The notes: generated by a model not told the origin, from the sequence alone. A DNA stretch of 42,555 bases from a virus (IMGVR_UViG_3300037124_000019:1-42555), one strand, 5' to 3'. Positions 3,399-41,908 are shown, numbered from the stretch's first letter. Numbers and translations are program-made.

Positions 3399-3432
3399 AG
3401 AGACGATGACACAGACACAGGAGACGAAGACG

Positions 3433-3723
3433 ATGACACAAGCAGAGATCACCAAAGCTATCCTCAGCAGCCGCCATGCAGCCCGCACCAAAGTCGAGAA
3501 GACCTTCCGCGCCATCAGCCCGGACCTGGCCGACTGCTGGCACGCGGAACAGCCGAATGAGCCGGTGGGCGTAATCCGCGCTGCCGTCGAGGCCGGTGAG
3601 GACTACGAGGCGGTGGCCTACAGCGCACTGGCCGACACCGCGCGTAGCTGGTGTGACGAGGTCGCGTCCGAATGCGACGGCCCCACACAGACCAAAATTG
3701 CTGCTGCCAAGGCGGCGCTGTAA
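3433..3723 (+). CDS. Hypothetical protein
   Basis: RBS CAGGAG before ATG 3433 (alternative ATG 3406); the stop abuts hairpin repeat 1. Confidence 0.7.
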   Translation: MTQAEITKAILSSRHAARTKVEKTFRAISPDLADCWHAEQPNEPVGVIRAAVEAGEDYEAVAYSALADTARSWCDEVASECDGPTQTKIAAAKAAL

Positions 3724-3795
3724 GGCAGTAGCCAGTCTGCCGCGCTCTCCAGCCCCGCGGGCCGGAGGGCTAGGCAGCGCTATCGCTGATAGGAG
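3724..3795 (+). ncRNA. Structured intergenic repeat, copy 1 (long imperfect hairpin plus RBS)
   Basis: GGCAGTAGC-CAGT-CTGCC-GC-GCTCTCC...GGAGGGC-TA-GGCAG-C-GCTATCGCT-GATAGGAG; three copies with stem-preserving changes. Confidence 0.7.
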
Positions 3796-3801
3796 CAAAT
3801 C

Positions 3802-3972
3802 ATGGAGACCATAGCGGCAGGAAGCGGAAGAGGGTTCACGGTCGAACTCGGGAAGGCGTTTGGCAAGTATTCCGTCTACGTCAATGGCGAGCGTTTTTAT
3901 GGTCCGACGCCTGACCACGACAAAGCTGTCACTGAGTACACCATATTACTCCGCAGGTACACCGGGCAGTAG
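3802..3972 (+). CDS. 56-aa hypothetical protein (METIAAGSGRGF...RRYTGQ), below the ORF-track cutoff
   Basis: Translated by hand; RBS supplied by repeat 1, stop TAG inside repeat 2. Confidence 0.75.
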   Translation: METIAAGSGRGFTVELGKAFGKYSVYVNGERFYGPTPDHDKAVTEYTILLRRYTGQ

Positions 3973-4039
3973 CCAGTCTGCCACGCCTTCCAGCCCGCCC
4001 GCGGGCCGGAGGGCTAGGCAGCGCTACCGCTGATAGGAG
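3965..4039 (+). ncRNA. Structured intergenic repeat, copy 2
   Basis: Near-identical to copies 1 and 3. Confidence 0.7.
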
Positions 4040-4048
4040 ACAAAGACG

Positions 4049-4528
4049 ATGAGCAGAGACATCCCAAAGTGTTCTAAGTGCGGCTGCTCAGCCATCGACC
4101 ATGTAGTCGACGATGAAGAGAGACGTGAGTGTTGCTTGTGTGAATGCGAGCAATTCGAAGCCCCCTCATCAATGGACACCATTTCGCTAGCTGCGAAAGT
4201 CGCACACGAAGTAAATCGCGCCTACTGCGAGTCTATTGGCGATGACAGCCAAGTCCCGTGGACCGAGGCGCCTGACTGGCAGAAACAATCTGCCGTGGAA
4301 GGAGTGAGAGCTATATCTGCAGACCCATGTCTATCGCCAGAATCCATCCATGGTCTGTGGTGTAAAGACAAAATGGCAGACGGGTGGGTATACGGGCCGA
4401 AAAAAGATGCCGAAGCGAAAACCCATCCATGTCTGGTGCCGTACATCGACCTCCCAAAAGAGCAGCAGACCAAAGATGCGCTATTTAGCGCAGCTGTGAG
4501 ATCTGTACTAGGCGTCGACGGGCAGTAG
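4049..4528 (+). CDS. RyR-domain phage protein with N-terminal Cys/His cluster
   Basis: H..W..DK.ADGWVYGP.KDAEAKTHPCLVPY.DLP.EQQ.KD motif; stop TAG inside repeat 3. Confidence 0.85.
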   Translation: MSRDIPKCSKCGCSAIDHVVDDEERRECCLCECEQFEAPSSMDTISLAAKVAHEVNRAYCESIGDDSQVPWTEAPDWQKQSAVEGVRAISADPCLSPESIHGLWCKDKMADGWVYGPKKDAEAKTHPCLVPYIDLPKEQQTKDALFSAAVRSVLGVDGQ

Positions 4529-4593
4529 CCAGTCTGCCACGCTCTCCCGCCTGCGCGGGCCGGAGAGCTAGGCAGCGCTACCGCTGATAGGAG
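4521..4593 (+). ncRNA. Structured intergenic repeat, copy 3
   Basis: Near-identical to copies 1 and 2. Confidence 0.7.
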
Positions 4594-4602
4594 ACAAAGA
4601 CG

Positions 4603-4764
4603 ATGAAGAGAAAAAAGACTTCGTTGAGAGAGAAAAAGGCTTCGATCAAAGAACGCGGCCAGAATAATCCGGGCGGCAACTCCAAGTACGGCAGAAAGCA
4701 TGCATACTGCGCCAAGAACAAGGTTTGGGGGTTTGATGTACCTGAGCCGAAGCCCTGGAAATGA
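4603..4764 (+). CDS. 53-aa basic hypothetical protein (MKRKKTSLREKK...PEPKPWK)
   Basis: Translated by hand; RBS supplied by repeat 3; the stop abuts the hammerhead. Confidence 0.7.
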   Translation: MKRKKTSLREKKASIKERGQNNPGGNSKYGRKHAYCAKNKVWGFDVPEPKPWK

Positions 4765-4826
4765 GGCGAAACCGGGCTAGGCCCGGTCCGCGGGAATTGC
4801 CCTACCCGTGCTGACGTGCCAGGGCA
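4765..4826 (+). ncRNA. Type II hammerhead ribozyme, core variant CUGACGU
   Basis: GGC-GAAA; stem III ACCGGGC/GCCCGGT; GTC with cleavage after 4788; stem I CGCGGG/CCCGTG; core CTGACGT; stem II GCC/GGC; pseudoknot of loop I TGCCCT (4798..4803) with AGGGCA (4821..4826). Confidence 0.85.
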
Positions 4827-4842
4827 GACGAAGGAGACGCCA

Positions 4843-5037
4843 GTGAAAAAGACCTATCGCGCATGCTACTGGGTGGCTAATGACCGTCAGAGCGATGTAG
4901 TCCTGACGTGCGAGGCTCAAGCTAATCTCCCGGACGAGGATTTGCTCGCGATCGCGCGCCGCAATGCTCACGAGATCGGGCTGGACCTATCGACCGGCGA
5001 GCTCAAGGTCGGTGAGTGGCGACCGTTCAACCTGTGA
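4843..5037 (+). CDS. Hypothetical protein
   Basis: RBS AAGGAG before GTG 4843. Confidence 0.7.
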   Translation: MKKTYRACYWVANDRQSDVVLTCEAQANLPDEDLLAIARRNAHEIGLDLSTGELKVGEWRPFNL

Positions 5038-5050
5038 AGAGTGGCAATAG

Positions 5051-5641
5051 ATGATTCACAAGACGGCATACATCCACCCGACCGCCACCATCCACCCGTC
5101 TGCCCGCGTGGGCGCCTGGGCCTACGTTGGCGACGGGGCCCGCGTAGGTCTCGATGCTCGCATAGGACTAGGAGCTTGCGTGGGCGACGGGGCCATCGTA
5201 TGCGCAAGAACTCGCGTGGGCGCCAATGCTAGCGTGTGTAAGAGAGCCTACGTAGGCCCAGGCGCCATCGTGGGGGCTTTGGTTCGCGTGGGCGTTGATG
5301 CCCGCATAGGCGAGCTGGCTCGCATAGATGACGGAACCCTCGTGGGCGACGAGGCCAGCGTGGGCGACGGGGCCAGCGTGGGTGTCGGTGCTTACATAGG
5401 TAATAGAGCCAGTATTGGCCTCGGGGCTCACGTGGGAGACGGGTCTAGCGTGGGCGCCAATGCTGGCGTGGGCGTCGGAGCCCGCGTGGGCTATATGGTC
5501 TACATAGGCGACAGAGCATGTGTGGGAGACGGAGCTCGCGTGGGCGACGAGGCCAGCGTGGCCGCCGGTGCCCACGTAGCTGACGGTGCTGTCGTCGACG
5601 ACGGTACCTACGTCGGGCCCAAAGACGAAAGGACACCCTAA
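5051..5641 (+). CDS. Hexapeptide-repeat (left-handed beta-helix) protein
   Basis: About 30 tandem [IV]GxxAx hexapeptides; no obvious extra catalytic domain. Confidence 0.9.
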   Translation: MIHKTAYIHPTATIHPSARVGAWAYVGDGARVGLDARIGLGACVGDGAIVCARTRVGANASVCKRAYVGPGAIVGALVRVGVDARIGELARIDDGTLVGDEASVGDGASVGVGAYIGNRASIGLGAHVGDGSSVGANAGVGVGARVGYMVYIGDRACVGDGARVGDEASVAAGAHVADGAVVDDGTYVGPKDERTP

Positions 5642-5865: not shown

Positions 5866-6062
5866 GACAGAGACGTAATGATGACACCGTGGAGGTCGGA
5901 TATTGGTGGGTGCTTGTCCCGTCATACCGCATGGTCCCCGAGCCGCCAGGTGGCGATTGGCTACCTTTCCAGGTCGAATCACGAGAGGACCTCGGCCGTG
6001 TGCTTGTCTACTGCCGGCGCGAGCACCCATCAGAGATTGGCGATAGGGGGCTCCTAACATGA
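5850..6062 (+). CDS. Hypothetical protein
   Basis: Fills the gap; ATGA overlap with the next gene. Start uncertain. Confidence 0.55.
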   Translation: MEVAVRQRRNDDTVEVGYWWVLVPSYRMVPEPPGGDWLPFQVESREDLGRVLVYCRREHPSEIGDRGLLT

Positions 6063-6460
6063 CGACCTTCGATTTTCAGGATGGCAATGGCCCAGTCCCA
6101 GCTCACAAGCACCAGAATGGAGGTGGTTGGGTCGCCGACACGGCATTCGTCGATGAGACGGCCTACGTGGGACCCGACGCACGGGTCTACGACAACGCGC
6201 GGGTCTGCGACGATGCGGTGATCGCTGGCACTGCGCAAGTATTCGAAAGAGCGTGGGTCTACAACTCAGCAGTGATCTTCGACAACGCGCGGGTCTACGG
6301 CGCTTCGCACGTCTTTCACCACGCGCAAGTCGGCGGCAATGCGTGGGTAAGCGGTAATGCGCTGGTCTGCGGTAGTACGCAGATTGGTGGTAATGCAGTG
6401 GTCTGCGGCGACGCGCAAGTCGGCGGCGACGAAGTGGTCAAACAGGTGATTTTGACATAG
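6059..6460 (+). CDS. Hexapeptide-repeat (VxxNAx) beta-helix protein
   Basis: HKHQNGGGWVADTA.V N-terminus followed by VYDNAR-type repeats. Confidence 0.9.
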   Translation: MTTFDFQDGNGPVPAHKHQNGGGWVADTAFVDETAYVGPDARVYDNARVCDDAVIAGTAQVFERAWVYNSAVIFDNARVYGASHVFHHAQVGGNAWVSGNALVCGSTQIGGNAVVCGDAQVGGDEVVKQVILT

Positions 6461-8681: not shown

Positions 8682-8978
8682 ATGAACCGACCAGAGGCGA
8701 AACGTTTGGCTCTCGAGTGCGCGAAGTGGTTGCTCAACAAGGCAGCCACGGCGGACTGGGGGGGCTCAATCGTATGGGACTGGTGTGAGGCTCATGGAAT
8801 CAGCAGTGATGAGGAAATCTCGCAAATCGAAGACGAGGTCCTCTCACTCATCCCCGACCTCTTGCAGCAACTCGACAGCGCGAGGGACGCGATCGAGGTG
8901 TTGACGGAGCAGATTGATCGTCAAAGGTGCGAGTACGAGACTTATTGGATACTTACCGACGATGGCTCTGACGATTGA
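8682..8978 (+). CDS. Acidic hypothetical protein
   Basis: RBS GAGG; follows the previous gene by 2 nt. Confidence 0.65.
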   Translation: MNRPEAKRLALECAKWLLNKAATADWGGSIVWDWCEAHGISSDEEISQIEDEVLSLIPDLLQQLDSARDAIEVLTEQIDRQRCEYETYWILTDDGSDD

Positions 8979-9512: not shown

Positions 9513-10088
9513 ATGAGGCGCGACCAATACCTGAGTTTTGACGAAATCTTTCGCCTGAGGAGTGACGCCAGCAAACGGGTGCACGATTCTTCGGCCGACC
9601 GGCTCACGTGGCTATGCGTCGACATGGCGTTGCAGACCGGTCTCAGGGTGTCAGAGATGGCCAAAATCACCGTCGATGACATCGATTTCGAGCGCGAATT
9701 TATCCGTGTACATCGCCACAAGCGCCGGGTGCCGACGAGGGATATTATCGGCATGTCTAAGAGCCTGGCGGCGCACCTAAAGGCGCACATCCAGTGGGTG
9801 AGCGCACGTGAGAGCCCCTGGAAGGCGACTATTTGGCCGGGCGAGCGCGGCCCGTGGACCAAGCGCGGTCTCCAGCAAGCCTGGGACAAGGCGTGCAGGC
9901 GTGTCGGGCTACGCCAGAGTATTCACTGCGCCAGGCATACTGTCGCTACTCACATGCTGCGCAATACCGGAAATCTGCGCATGGTCCAAAAGCATCTGGG
10001 CCATACCTCACCGACGACAACGGCAAACTTCTACGCCGACGTTCCCCTCGAGGACATGATAGCGACTCTTGACGACCTGTTCGGATAG
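9513..10088 (+). CDS. Tyrosine recombinase, catalytic domain only (191 aa)
   Basis: TGLRVSE, K, HCARH, LGH and C-terminal Y catalytic set; no N-terminal core-binding or arm-binding domain. Confidence 0.92.
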   Translation: MRRDQYLSFDEIFRLRSDASKRVHDSSADRLTWLCVDMALQTGLRVSEMAKITVDDIDFEREFIRVHRHKRRVPTRDIIGMSKSLAAHLKAHIQWVSARESPWKATIWPGERGPWTKRGLQQAWDKACRRVGLRQSIHCARHTVATHMLRNTGNLRMVQKHLGHTSPTTTANFYADVPLEDMIATLDDLFG

Positions 10089-21079: not shown

Positions 21080-23047
21080 ATGCCTTGGTTAGCTGCGGCG
21101 GCTGTAGGTGGTGCTCTGATATCTGGGGTGGGAGGCTATTTGGCGGCCAGAAAGCAGGGCGACACCAGCAAAGAAGCTCTGAACGCTCAGCTAAGGGCAG
21201 CACAAGATGCCCAAATGCGAGCCCAACTAGGCTCGGAAAACATCTACCGGATGCTCGGCGAAACAGGAGGAGCCGCCCAGGGAGTATTGAGGGACAGCAT
21301 CCAGCAAGCCCAAGCTGACATTGCTGGGGCAGGCATTGGCCAACGAAAGCTGCTGGAGAGCGGACTTGAGCAAGCGCGGCAAGATTTAGCCTCCGGTAGG
21401 ACAGGAGCGCTGGACTATTTGAGAGGTGGCCTGCTCGGTGCTCAACAGCAATTGACGCAGGGTGGACAGCAAGCCATCGGACTTTACCAGAGAGGGCTCC
21501 GAGAAGCCCAGGACGTCACGAGACGCGGCGGCGAACAGACCCTGGATTATCTGCGGCAGGGGTTTGGTGGAGCCCAGGACGTCATCAGCCGCGGCGGTGA
21601 ACAGACCCTGGATTATCTGAGGCAAGGGTTTGGTGGCGCTGAGCAAGCCCTAGGCAGAGGAGCCGACATATACGCCAGCGGCATGCAGGGAGCGCTTGGG
21701 GCGCTTGGCGGGGCCCGTGGTGACCTAACGGTAAGACAAGCACAGGCTGAACGAGCTTTGATGCAGGCTGGCGGAGATGCCCGTGGTGCACTCACAGGCG
21801 CCGCCGGCCGCGCAGAGGGTGCTCTGTCCCCTTTGATCGGTCTCCAATCTCTCGGCCCCCAGGCGGCTCAGGCGTTGAGCACCAGAGATGTCACTGGTGC
21901 GCCGAGCCGTGTGGAAGAACTTCTAGGCCAAGACCCATACGCCGATTTCCAGGAGGACCCAGGTTTCCAATTCAGGCAGCAAGAGGGCGAAAAAGCCATA
22001 CAGAGAGCGGCATCGGCCGCAGGTGGCCGCTTATCATCCAACACGCTTCGAAATCTGGCGCGGTTCAACCAAGAACTGGCCAGTCAGGAATACGGCAATT
22101 TCGCCCAGCGCCAGCTGGCCGCCCGTGGACAAACGCTGGGCGCCGCTGGACAGGCAGATGCTCTACGTCAACAGGCCCTACAAAGCCAAGCCGGTATGGA
22201 GCTACAAGCGGGGTTAGCTGCTCAAGCAAATCAGATGGGTCTGGCGGGACTCGGGTTCGGTGCTCAGCGTCAGCTGGCCGATATTCAAACAGGCCTGGGT
22301 CAGAACCTCGCGAATCTGGCTATTGGTCAGGGTGGGGCGATAGCAGCTGGGCGGCAAGCTCTCGGCACCGGCCTTGCTGGATTAGGGCAGCAAGCCGCCG
22401 GTATGCAGATGACTGGCGCGGGACAGCTATCCGGCATTCAGGCCAACCTCGCGAATCTGGCGACACAGGGAGGCCAGGCTATGGCCGGTGCGTACGGTCA
22501 GAACGTCGCCAACCTCGCGAATCTGGCGACACAGGGCGGCCAGGCTATGGCTGGTGCGTCCGGTCAGAACGTCGCCAATCTCGCGAATCTGGCCATGCAG
22601 GGCGGCCAGGGGCTCGCTGGGTTGCGCGGCCAGAACGCGGCCAACCTCGCGAATCTGACTATGCAGGGCGGCCAGTCTATGGCTGGCACATATGGACAAG
22701 GGATGACCAACCTCGCGAATCTGGCCATGCAGGGCGGCCAGTCACTGGCGAATCTCCATGGGCAGACATACGGCAATATCGCCAATATAGGCATGCAGGG
22801 TGGTCAATCGCTGGCTAGCCTGATTTCTGGCACCGGAGCCCAGCAGGCGAATGCCCTGCTCTCAGGATTGGGTGCGCAAGCAAACCTCACTCAGGCCACC
22901 TTGCCTATGTACCAAGCGCCGGTGCAATATGCTGGCCAAGGCACAGCGGCTATTGCGAACGCGGCTAACCAAGCCCTTAGCAATATGCTATTTCTTGGGG
23001 CCTCTCAAGGAATGTTTGGAGGGAGCCCAGCCGAATACAGGCTCTAG
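21080..23047 (+). CDS. DNA ejection/pilot protein with 22-aa G/A/Q-rich repeats
   Basis: Hydrophobic Gly/Ala N-terminus; DPGFQFR..EG.KAI.R.ASA.GG.LS..T motif; 66-nt repeats. Confidence 0.8.
   Translation: MPWLAAAAVGGALISGVGGYLAARKQGDTSKEALNAQLRAAQDAQMRAQLGSENIYRMLGETGGAAQGVLRDSIQQAQADIAGAGIGQRKLLESGLEQARQDLASGRTGALDYLRGGLLGAQQQLTQGGQQAIGLYQRGLREAQDVTRRGGEQTLDYLRQGFGGAQDVISRGGEQTLDYLRQGFGGAEQALGRGADIYASGMQGALGALGGARGDLTVRQAQAERALMQAGGDARGALTGAAGRAEGALSPLIGLQSLGPQAAQALSTRDVTGAPSRVEELLGQDPYADFQEDPGFQFRQQEGEKAIQRAASAAGGRLSSNTLRNLARFNQELASQEYGNFAQRQLAARGQTLGAAGQADALRQQALQSQAGMELQAGLAAQANQMGLAGLGFGAQRQLADIQTGLGQNLANLAIGQGGAIAAGRQALGTGLAGLGQQAAGMQMTGAGQLSGIQANLANLATQGGQAMAGAYGQNVANLANLATQGGQAMAGASGQNVANLANLAMQGGQGLAGLRGQNAANLANLTMQGGQSMAGTYGQGMTNLANLAMQGGQSLANLHGQTYGNIANIGMQGGQSLASLISGTGAQQANALLSGLGAQANLTQATLPMYQAPVQYAGQGTAAIANAANQALSNMLFLGASQGMFGGSPAEYRL
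22445..22774 (+). repeat. Five tandem 66-nt coding repeats
   Basis: AAYCTCGCGAATCTG at 22445, 22511, 22577, 22643 and 22709. Confidence 0.85.
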
Positions 23048-39056: not shown

Positions 39057-41043
39057 CGATGACCTATTTTCGGTCCCGGGCCCGCCCCCGGAGCCACCGG
39101 AGCCTCCACCGGAACGACCGGTCATCCAGTACATCAAGGCCGATGTTCACGATGCTGTAGATGATGCCATCCCGTTTGTGGCTGCCTCCGACCTGATTTA
39201 CCAGCGGTCCGGGCGGTTGGTGAAGGTCGCCTACACGAGGGGCATCCGCGACGGCATCATCCGCGAGGACGAGTGCCCCATTATCATGAACGTGACGCGG
39301 GGCTACCTCATCGAAGTCCTCAGCCGTTGCATCTACTGGATGAAGTACGATGGCCGATCGCAGAAACTCGTCGGCTGTGAGCCCCCCCAGGCCGTCGTGG
39401 CTGCCTTTTTGGACCGGGGGGAGTGGCCTGACATCCCAATTCTGCGCGGCGTGTCCACAATCCCAATTCTGCGCGATTCCGGCTCGGTCTGCATGAAACA
39501 GGGCTACGACGAGCAATCCGAGTACTTCCATGCCCCAACGGTGGACAAATTGTCACCTGACTGGTCCTTCGACCAAGAGGGGGCCTCCGAGTGCTGCAAG
39601 GAAATCCTCGATTGGGTCAGCGATTTCCCCTTCGCCGAGGAGTGCCACCGGTCCGCGTGGTTGGCGGCCGTGCTCACCGGGGTGAGCATCCCAATAATTG
39701 ATGGACCCACCCCCCTGACCCTCATCGACGCCAACGCCCCCGGCACCGGTAAATCGCTGCTCGTCGACGTCGCCAGTGTGATTTCCACCGGGATGAGCGC
39801 GGCCCGGTCGCCAGATGTCAGAGATGAGGAAGAGCTCCGAAAACGCATCACCAGCCACCTGATGGCCGGCGACCGCCTCTGCATGATTGACAATGTCCGT
39901 GGCGGCTCGAAAATCGGCTGGCCAGCGCTCGACGCCCTCCTGACGTCCGAAACCTGGTCCGACCGGGAGCTCGGTAAATCCGGGGTCGTTCGGCTCCCAG
40001 CCAAGACCCAGTGGTTTGTGACCGGCAACAACCTCGCCGTGGGCACCGATATCGCGCGCCGCACACTTCGCGTCCGCCTCGAGGCCAGCGTCGAGCGCCC
40101 CGAGCTCCGCTCAGGCTTCAAACACGACCCACTGCTCCGAGAAATCCGCCGGATGCGCCGCGACCTCATGAGCAAAGCCCTTCTAGTCGTCAGGTCCTAC
40201 ATCTACGCCGGCCGACCCGACGTCGGGGTAAAACCTCTCGGTAGCTTCGAAAGCTGGTCCGTCATTGTCCGCAACGCCATTATCTGGGCCGGCCTCGCCG
40301 ACCCGGTGGACGCGCTCGTAGGGAACGAAGAGGGCGTCGATGAAGAGGATAGCGCCAGAAAAGTCCTCCTGCTTAATTGGAAATCTCTCAAAGGATTTCC
40401 TCCCGTCGAAGGCGGAATTACTGCCTCTGAAGCACTCAAAGAAATAGAAAATCATCGGGACGAGTACGGCGATATCATTGAGGCTTTAGAAAGCCTTTGC
40501 TATATAAATAACAGAAACGGCCTTCCGAGCGCCAAAAGCCTTGGTCGTGTACTAAACGGGATGCTAAAAAGAATTCACGTCATCGGTAATGAGCGCTACC
40601 AATTTACCAAAAAGAGGAATCGTAGAAATACTTTCATGTGGGACGTGGAAATTTCACCCCTCGAGCCTGATTTTTTGGCCAAAAGCCTAGTTTACGATGA
40701 TCCAAAAAATAAACCCGACAGCAAACCTCGCACTCAAGTACCTGAAATCACAGATGGTCACGGGTATGATGGGTCTATTGGTTTAAATATATTGTTGAGG
40801 GGGAAATCAAATGACAGTTTCTATATAAGGGGAAAAAATGGTCCATATGGCCGGCATAACCCGCATGGCAATAATTCCAATAACTTAGATAAAAACGACA
40901 TGCTTACCGATTTGGTAAGCAATCCGGAATTGAGCATGCAAGACCGGAAAAAAACTGAATGTGATGAAAAAAATGATGATAATCAGGATTTTGATGAGGA
41001 AATTTTCGGGTTTAATTTTGAGGACGAAAATAATGAAGATTAG
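39049..41043 (+). CDS. Primase-associated P-loop helicase/ATPase
   Basis: Walker A PGTGKS, IDNV, R.LG.S, TGNN....D..RR; AT-rich acidic tail. Confidence 0.85.
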   Translation: MVDDDLFSVPGPPPEPPEPPPERPVIQYIKADVHDAVDDAIPFVAASDLIYQRSGRLVKVAYTRGIRDGIIREDECPIIMNVTRGYLIEVLSRCIYWMKYDGRSQKLVGCEPPQAVVAAFLDRGEWPDIPILRGVSTIPILRDSGSVCMKQGYDEQSEYFHAPTVDKLSPDWSFDQEGASECCKEILDWVSDFPFAEECHRSAWLAAVLTGVSIPIIDGPTPLTLIDANAPGTGKSLLVDVASVISTGMSAARSPDVRDEEELRKRITSHLMAGDRLCMIDNVRGGSKIGWPALDALLTSETWSDRELGKSGVVRLPAKTQWFVTGNNLAVGTDIARRTLRVRLEASVERPELRSGFKHDPLLREIRRMRRDLMSKALLVVRSYIYAGRPDVGVKPLGSFESWSVIVRNAIIWAGLADPVDALVGNEEGVDEEDSARKVLLLNWKSLKGFPPVEGGITASEALKEIENHRDEYGDIIEALESLCYINNRNGLPSAKSLGRVLNGMLKRIHVIGNERYQFTKKRNRRNTFMWDVEISPLEPDFLAKSLVYDDPKNKPDSKPRTQVPEITDGHGYDGSIGLNILLRGKSNDSFYIRGKNGPYGRHNPHGNNSNNLDKNDMLTDLVSNPELSMQDRKKTECDEKNDDNQDFDEEIFGFNFEDENNED

Positions 41044-41635: not shown

Positions 41636-41646
41636 TTACGTGGGCA

Positions 41647-41678
41647 ACTCAGTACATAATTACTATTGTGTACTGAGT
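41647..41678. other. Putative tyrosine-recombinase target site (13-6-13 palindrome, dif/lox-like)
   Basis: ACTCAGTACATAA-TTACTA-TTGTGTACTGAGT; arms 12/13 complementary; CATAA-N6-TTGTG resembles the dif core CATAA-N6-TTATG. Confidence 0.65.
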
Positions 41679-41908
41679 CAGTGATTAGGGATGTGGGTTG
41701 GAGTAGTTTTATGTGTGTTGAGGTGATGAACTGTGCTGTATCACCAGGCTCGGGCGCTCGGCAGGGGCGTGGAGAATCCACCCACCATACCAATTACGGA
41801 AACAATCAGCAGGTATTGTTTCGTAGGAGGAAACAGAGATGAGCAAAACCCAAATAACGCAAGGTGGAAAGACCATTCTGCAAGCTCGAGAGTGATGGGA
41901 GGTGAGCT

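Follow-up and report, generated by a model that had tools for sequence, protein, structure and literature searches.

The small-gene cluster of the phage described here carries, at three successive gene junctions, copies of a structured repeat that constitutes a genuine family of RNA hairpins, one that is absent from the catalogs and is known at present from two phages. We tentatively read these repeats, at a probability a little short of even, as RNA hairpins under selection on the message strand that act as cutting signals for a host enzyme of the RNase III type, which would split the transcript of the small genes, a job that a neighboring hammerhead at the fourth junction is predicted to do by itself.

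The window, by which we mean the whole stretch of 42,555 bases that was analyzed, corresponds to a complete phage record, which carries a terminal repeat of 127 nt. Its genes include those for terminase, portal, capsid, head-closure and ejection proteins, tail spike, and amidase, as well as a RecE-like exonuclease, a helicase, a primase, and a 191-aa tyrosine recombinase. From the capsid and portal set, the phage reads as a podophage, and the closest cultured capsids share 35-37% identity with that of the window. The junction elements sit among small plus-strand genes that are mostly without a family, the exception being a gene for an RyR-domain protein. These genes are ORF A (3433..3723, 96 aa, no family), ORF B (3802..3972, 56 aa), the RyR-domain gene (4049..4528, 159 aa, PF02026), ORF D (4603..4764, 53 aa, basic), and ORF E (4843..5037, 64 aa), the last of which lies 3' of the hammerhead.

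Several other features of this genome were recorded. Two genes of the early region (5051-5641 and 6059-6460) encode hexapeptide-repeat (left-handed beta-helix) proteins. A second intergenic repeat of 37 nt (402-438 and 1816-1852, 89% identity, including a core of 20 nt that is exact) lies 5' of two early genes and is possibly a promoter or operator, and a perfect 14-bp A+T-rich inverted repeat before the early region (41645-41680), located within the best-folding segment of the scan (z -6.2), is possibly an operator. A T-tract followed by a -35/-10-like pair, which was recognized by eye and not called by the promoter scan, occupies 2925-2978, 4 nt 5' of the ATG at 2979, and is a possible promoter of the cluster that is perhaps leaderless. 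A 32-nt direct repeat (97%, 1048-1079 and 21952-21983) is common to two unrelated coding regions, while the arms of a 34-nt inverted repeat (91%, 8735-8768 and 39378-39411) are separated by 30 kb. The short tyrosine recombinase (9513-10088, 191 aa, catalytic domain only) has approximately 40 close metagenome relatives, mostly of 160-220 aa, in a search limited to proteins of near length.

The three copies of the repeat, which lie on the plus strand at 3724..3787, 3965..4031, and 4521..4585, are real, as an earlier note on this DNA had claimed. Each arm motif has three matches in the 42,555 bases, with 0.04 and 0.00 expected, and a covariance model run across the genome recovered these three plus-strand copies only, at 98-104 bits, with the best unrelated match at 16.8 bits and no fourth copy anywhere in the window. 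The repeat extends through the Shine-Dalgarno (SD) sequence (3791-3795, 4035-4039, and 4589-4593, respectively) and, in copies 2 and 3, also through the start codon. The 18-nt leader has exact matches at 3419, 4035, and 4589 (0.10 expected); the first of these (3419..3436, plus strand) provides the RBS and start codon of ORF A without a preceding hairpin. The hairpins lie across or just 3' of a stop codon, with their base 14-18 nt 5' of the next start codon. A placement exactly between stop codon and RBS, as originally described, applies to copy 1, which directly follows a TAA stop, whereas the TAG stops of ORF B (3970-3972) and of the RyR-domain gene lie inside the 5' arms of copies 2 and 3. 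Neither a promoter-like site nor a U-tract was found in window 3700-4850, repeats included.

A protein search with ORF D led to an 80% identical protein and to its phage record of 43,752 bases, hereafter G042, the nucleotide likeness of which to the window is limited to this cluster and two stretches near window 30.1-31.2 kb. The orthologue of copy 2 in G042, at 616-690 on the 3' side of its ORF B homologue, is a clear homologue of the repeat (56.9 bits, E 1e-10), and the orthologous fourth junction carries a canonical hammerhead (40.2 bits, over the Rfam cut-off). The next junction has a shorter rod (1329-1378; 15.4 bits, E 0.19) with a strong fold (z -4.5, plus strand better than minus), the upstream TAG in its 5' arm, and the basal motif common to the repeats, and this rod is a probable distant member of the family; it is counted among the five hairpins below and is left out of the four clear copies. 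Junction 1 has collapsed to a remnant in G042, and junction 3 keeps the 3' arm alone, within a gene that reads through it. Since two homologous junctions have decayed in G042, the element is dispensable at some junctions.

On the plus strand, each window copy folds as a single GC-rich rod of 25-26 pairs (z -2.2, -3.7, and -2.6; -38 to -43 kcal/mol) that leaves the SD sequence outside. The asymmetric CAGU/C loop of the fold first proposed is better drawn as a bulged CA, a single G-C pair, and a bulged U. When 30-100 nt of flanking sequence is included in the fold, other pairings are predicted to displace the lower stem of copy 1 (pair probability 0.00-0.07); that of copy 2 is predicted to be no more than partially stable, and copy 3 and G042 616-690 to hold. 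An alternative fold as two small hairpins was rejected as it was not conserved in G042. Loop-loop pairing of at least three bases was absent from all three window copies and no pseudoknot was available; in the G042 copies, loop-loop pairings do exist, but involve the SD sequence.

Pairing is strictly conserved among the four clear copies, in which 92 of 92 cells over 23 pairs are paired, with two pairs changed on both sides and three on one side, whereas slid controls of the same alignment were 25-52% paired. We relied on this four-sequence count because a five-sequence MAFFT alignment misregisters the distant G042 copy (94% paired, 18/500 shuffles). A covariance model was built and scored the G042 homologue, and the helix was found to be kept, whereas covariation with four sequences did not beat the shuffle control (130/500); the earlier note had called for such a model, a search for homologues, and a test of covariation. 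Among the three window copies, all five stem-column substitutions keep plus-strand pairing, versus 27-28 of 50 random transitions (approximately p 0.05 by our own arithmetic), and across the homologues the six variable stem positions all pass through G-U on the plus strand and none through A.C (sign test 1/64, also our own arithmetic, for sequences that are related). The wobbles had been described as working on the plus strand only, which agrees with the variable positions but not with the fixed ones: an invariant plus-strand A.C mismatch is a G.U pair on the minus strand, and the minus-strand fold is the more stable one in copies 2 (-47.7 versus -43.1 kcal/mol) and 3 (-44.5 versus -39.3 kcal/mol). 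Because the fixed A.C mismatches become G.U on the minus strand, we base the strand evidence on the variable positions, and RNA-level selection on the mRNA strand is supported by the pattern of these substitutions.

The unpaired parts of the hairpin behave differently from its helix. The 5' bulge is CA in the window copies, UCCAA in the clear homologue (a change from 2 to 5 nt), and missing from the probable one; the 2x2 loop turns into a single pair and a mismatch, and the apical loop is different in every copy. The sole unpaired feature fixed in all five hairpins is the A.C mismatch beneath the RUAG/YUAY helix, and this basal mismatch is accompanied by U-A, A-U, and G-Y steps that are also invariant (5/5). 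The UAG in the lower stem doubles as a stop codon in four of the five hairpins, copy 1 being the exception, and this use partly explains its conservation.

Known families were searched for matches to the repeat. The judgment by eye that it matched none of seven known ribozyme classes was borne out by Rfam 15 including the RAGATH motifs, which gave only generic hairpin matches far below gathering scores (E up to 10), and an Rfam scan of G042 returned nothing but the hammerhead. A partial CRISPR-DR28 match (E 6) was rejected. Three pattern scans of viral sequences yielded five loci (four chance matches in apparently one coding sequence and one identical record), one locus (an identical record), and six loci (five without the fold and one identical record); these scans are a weak test because all three missed the real G042 homologue. 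The best of 15 loci from a metagenome pattern scan (19.8 bits) lay inside an ORF on the other strand, and no BLAST match to the repeat in phages and plasmids went below E 0.9. Model R1 found a member in none of 26 records reached via RyR and terminase homologues (28 loci) and matched one of 15 further records at E 0.59, while the best E of model R2 over 93 loci (0.9 Mb) was 0.31. A literature search, outside of which most subscription papers lay, found no publication joining self-cleaving ribozyme, phage polycistronic RNA, RNase III, and hammerhead, or ribozyme and RyR.

Regarding the fourth junction, the earlier note had predicted a hammerhead there, and the element (4765..4826, plus strand) is, from its sequence features, a type II hammerhead with a variant core, for which self-cutting is predicted. 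It has three stems, a GAAA at 4768-4771, an NUH triplet (GUC, 4786-4788, predicted cut after 4788), and a 6-bp pseudoknot between loop I and the 3' tail (4798-4803 with 4821-4826), with the SD sequence following at 4832-4836. Although it was missed in an Rfam scan of the whole window, a scan of 1.25 kb gave a Hammerhead_II match at 4764-4833 (30.1 bits, below the gathering score of 37, E 8.5e-4), and the call is supported by orthology to the canonical copy in G042. The core at 4811-4817 does not read CUGANGA but CUGACGU, with U in place of A9, and the activity of this variant may be reduced. The same core was found in record G037 (33.6 bits; intact stems and a possible pseudoknot), which was one of five other loci from a pattern scan. 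This change is not among the core variants named in the relevant section of PMC3088659, and a search by title of the literature on hammerhead A9U gave no paper on a natural hammerhead core; the natural occurrence of CUGACGU in two unrelated records is a small addition to the known cores. A homologue of ORF E, P0054, has extra N-terminal residues that fit read-through of a hammerhead-like 3' end and RBS, a hint that this junction recurs in a third phage.

The first interpretation of the repeat was as a functional equivalent of the hammerhead, either a new self-cleaving RNA or a nuclease-processing site. The slot shared with the hammerhead agrees with this interpretation, and the nuclease-site half now appears the better of the two, whereas the half proposing a new ribozyme is weakened by the changing loops and the lack of loop-loop pairing. 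As a new class of self-cleaving ribozyme, the rod would be a minimal one with its active site in the CA-containing 5' bulge, interchangeable with hammerheads at phage junctions, and the G042 hairpin that lacks the bulge would have to be an element of another kind; we consider this highly improbable. The occupation of the same slot as a hammerhead speaks for it, as passages of PMC6765202 relate that twister was recognized through a slot in common with the hammerhead, and so do the lack of an Rfam match and the CA step of the 5' bulge, which is kept in the four clear copies. Very simple internal-loop ribozymes also exist, and the TS-like (lantern) ribozymes in the portions of PMC11620745 concerned with them demonstrate that a simple rod may be catalytic, provided that it has a conserved 5/6-nt loop. 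Like twister-sister and TS-like ribozymes, the window repeats are rods interrupted by internal loops, with a CA step on the longer strand of a loop; however, the 5/6-nt catalytic loop is absent, and their bulges of 2+1, 5+1, or none and 2x2 or 1x1 loop, which vary among homologues and have no Rfam match, set them apart from that class as described in those portions (PMC11620745). The clear homologue differs in the length and sequence of its loops, the probable one lacks the bulge, and the rod has neither a multi-helix junction nor, in the three window copies, loop-loop pairing. A helix that is kept, loops that are not, and the lack of a pseudoknot in the window copies together favor a double-stranded processing signal over a new ribozyme; a long fixed helix with free loops would suit a double-strand ribonuclease, not a ribozyme core.

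For processing by RNase III, we propose that the enzyme would dock at the conserved basal RUAG/YUAY helix and nick the 3' arm a few bases 5' of the SD sequence, which in the window copies would be 5 nt before it (predicted cuts at 3785/3786, 4029/4030, and 4583/4584). The upstream message would keep a protective 3' hairpin and the downstream message would begin at its ribosome-binding site, as in T7. A single nick in the 3' arm is favored because the matching cut in the 5' arm, immediately ahead of the UAG stop, would deprive the upstream message of its stop codon. Parts of two sources give the substrate of RNase III as 22 bp or two helical turns (PMC3867540) and state that the E. coli enzyme is satisfied by 11 bp of helix to one side of its cut (PMC1540722). 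The ladders of the five hairpins, at 23-30 positions, have this length, though they are bulged in four, and bulges break the 11 pairs above the predicted site in four of the five. In the proximal box, according to passages of the same sources, the enzyme prefers G-C at pb1 and A-U or U-A at pb2, and G-C is disfavored at pb4 (PMC3867540, PMC1540722), and every register of the five rods was scored by the pb1-pb3 rules as given in that part of PMC1540722, with G.U allowed at pb1 and A-U or U-A at pb3. One shared basal register, the sole one to agree with pb1-pb3, was found in all five hairpins and agreed with pb4 too in three, versus 14-38% (pb1-pb3) and 6-23% (all four) of shuffled ladders, these being E. 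coli rules and hairpins that are related to one another. The fit is thus not significant for any single hairpin and, although it agrees with RNase III processing, does not prove it. Copies 2 and 3 fail at pb4, where they have G-C, which is described as a catalytic antideterminant for E. coli RNase III in the portion of PMC1540722 dealing with it. The distal-box spacing, judged by eye, is off the consensus quoted in a passage of PMC4357697; the distal box is not conserved across species according to a passage of PMC3867540. In the excerpted results of Altuvia et al., the two central positions were paired in approximately 90% of double-cut targets (PMC6212723). One of these two positions is a mismatch in all five hairpins, unlike in most double-cut targets.

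Intercistronic stem-loops act in segmental mRNA stability, and the hairpins may thus remain uncut and serve as exonuclease barriers that set the stabilities of segments, including the pieces freed by the hammerhead, a possibility that we regard as unlikely while still giving it some weight. Strong GC-rich rods (-38 to -43 kcal/mol) with a kept helix and free loops would be adequate for this role, for which enzyme-specific sequence is unnecessary, and E. coli RNase III would be impeded by the G-C pair that copies 2 and 3 have at pb4. However, a barrier would need far fewer than 25-29 ladder positions, the basal mismatch and its neighboring steps are invariant in all five hairpins, and the slot is common with a cutter, the hammerhead, in two phages.

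The position of the stop codon also bears on a translational-coupling switch, in which a ribosome ending at the 5'-arm UAG would open the stem and free the next RBS. The stop in the lower stem of four of the five hairpins and the distance of 14-18 nt between the base and the next start are consistent with such a switch, whereas the SD sequence lies outside the rod and the UAG of copy 1 is not a stop. When upstream footprints of 18-25 nt were modeled, an open 5' arm lowered the opening cost of the initiation region in one of five cases (G042 616-690) and raised it in the other four, while footprints of 12-15 nt gave mixed results. Translational coupling is not supported by this modeling, and we assign it a very low probability.

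The comparison with G042 also revealed gene replacement within the cluster. ORFs B and D are common to the two phages (71% and 80% identical), while ORF A, the RyR-domain gene, and ORF E give way to genes without alignment, so that three of five genes are replaced. In this one comparison, the two blocks of homology, window 3793-4060 and 4567-4837, begin and stop at junctions, and the junction series of both phages mixes rods with a hammerhead. The repeated hairpin-plus-RBS unit likely gives short homology for swapping whole genes between phages as a by-product, a reading that we adopt because swapping also occurs at the hammerhead and because the pairing evidence points to the RNA strand.

A main role at the DNA level, with the repeats serving in a PeSL-like or attC-like manner to swap gene cassettes and the hairpin as a passenger, is rather improbable. 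The beginning and end of inter-phage homology at junctions, the replacement of ORF A, the RyR-domain gene, and ORF E around the kept ORFs B and D, the duplication of the RBS leader along with the hairpin, and the 191-aa tyrosine recombinase encoded by the phage would all fit such a role. The variable pairs, on the other hand, hold on the mRNA strand only, and swaps also occurred at the hammerhead junction, such that the hairpin was not required, in the two phages compared. The attC sites of integrons carry R boxes (RYYYAAC / GTTRRRY) and go with an IntI integrase. Neither strand of any of the five hairpins has R boxes, nor was AAC or GTT present, and the recombinase scored 58 bits versus the 265-bit cut-off for integron integrases (TIGR02249); integron attC was therefore rejected. 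The PeSLs of T4-type phages mediate gene shuffling (Arbiol et al., 2010; PMC2839356), and, as far as the relevant passages of that study describe them, share with the window a repeated intergenic stem-loop motif and the exchange of small genes between related phages, which was observed here in one comparison. They differ in having a sigma70-like promoter and a terminator U-tract (PMC2839356), neither of which was seen in the window repeats, and selection in the window points to the RNA strand.

Another DNA-level explanation, that the repeats are host REP-type palindromes of the GTAG family that landed in the phage, is largely refuted, and we give it a negligible probability. On the minus strand, copies 2 and 3 show the geometry of E. 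coli REPs, with GTAG at positions 1-4 and a 2x2 mismatch at 12-13, the bulge sequence would still be cleavable by TnpA-REP, and GTAG REPs often provide a TAG stop, as described in passages of PMC8266576 and PMC3733652. The REP foot GTAG tolerates no change according to the same passages (PMC8266576, PMC3733652), and it has been lost on the minus strand of copy 1 and, via a compensatory change, on both strands of G042 616-690. Furthermore, T11 is not kept, the phage has no Y1 transposase (PF01797), the RBS forms part of the repeat, and a GTDB pattern scan returned one locus at 14.2 bits, which is chance level.

The RNase III signals of T7 are the closest parallel to the processing that we propose. 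In the accessible descriptions, the T7 polycistronic precursor carries five such signals (PMC3867540), which, similar to the window hairpins, separate the genes of a polycistronic phage message and are imperfect hairpins of two turns in which the helix matters more than the loop, and a single nick may leave a stabilizing 3' hairpin (PMC3867540, PMC1540722). The window hairpins differ in being G+C-richer, in their partial fit to the E. coli box rules, in overlapping the upstream stop, and in alternating with a hammerhead. Clustered hammerheads that flank single genes have been described in prophages (Perreault et al., 2011; PMC3088659; RF02276), and the passages of that study on phage gene junctions report that such hammerheads cut 2-kb polycistronic RNAs in vitro (PMC3088659). 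Junction 4 is similar to these in being of type II with a loop I/3'-tail pseudoknot between small genes (PMC3088659), whereas three of the four window junctions carry a non-hammerhead rod and the window hammerhead has U for A9.

Hammerheads at small-gene junctions were also noted in two other phage records. Streptomyces phage phiScoe1 (L065 432-4735) has six type II matches within 6 kb, several of which carry one more base 3' of the core; its junction at 3657-3737 holds a plain hairpin. Record G001 (L124 8703-10582) has four type I hammerhead-like elements that are duplicated with an RBS leader, only one of which gives weak Rfam matches in a scan of the locus. Two repeats of 32 nt, 62 nt apart, lie at a gene junction of the same record (L124 12166-12259) and may resemble the type I-E CRISPR repeat.

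According to the part of PMC6765202 on these ribozymes, it has yet to be settled what purpose hammerheads serve in bacteria and phages, and the layout described here, with junction hairpins, junction hammerheads, and gene swapping at repeats, is already known in parts. If it were true that the hairpin cuts itself, it would represent a new ribozyme class. In the processing that we favor, a protein-cut hairpin and a self-cutting RNA would share one job within a cluster of 1.1 kb, and the window phage and G042 provide two natural versions of this cluster, with swapped genes and decayed junctions; one transcript with two chemistries would allow a clean test.
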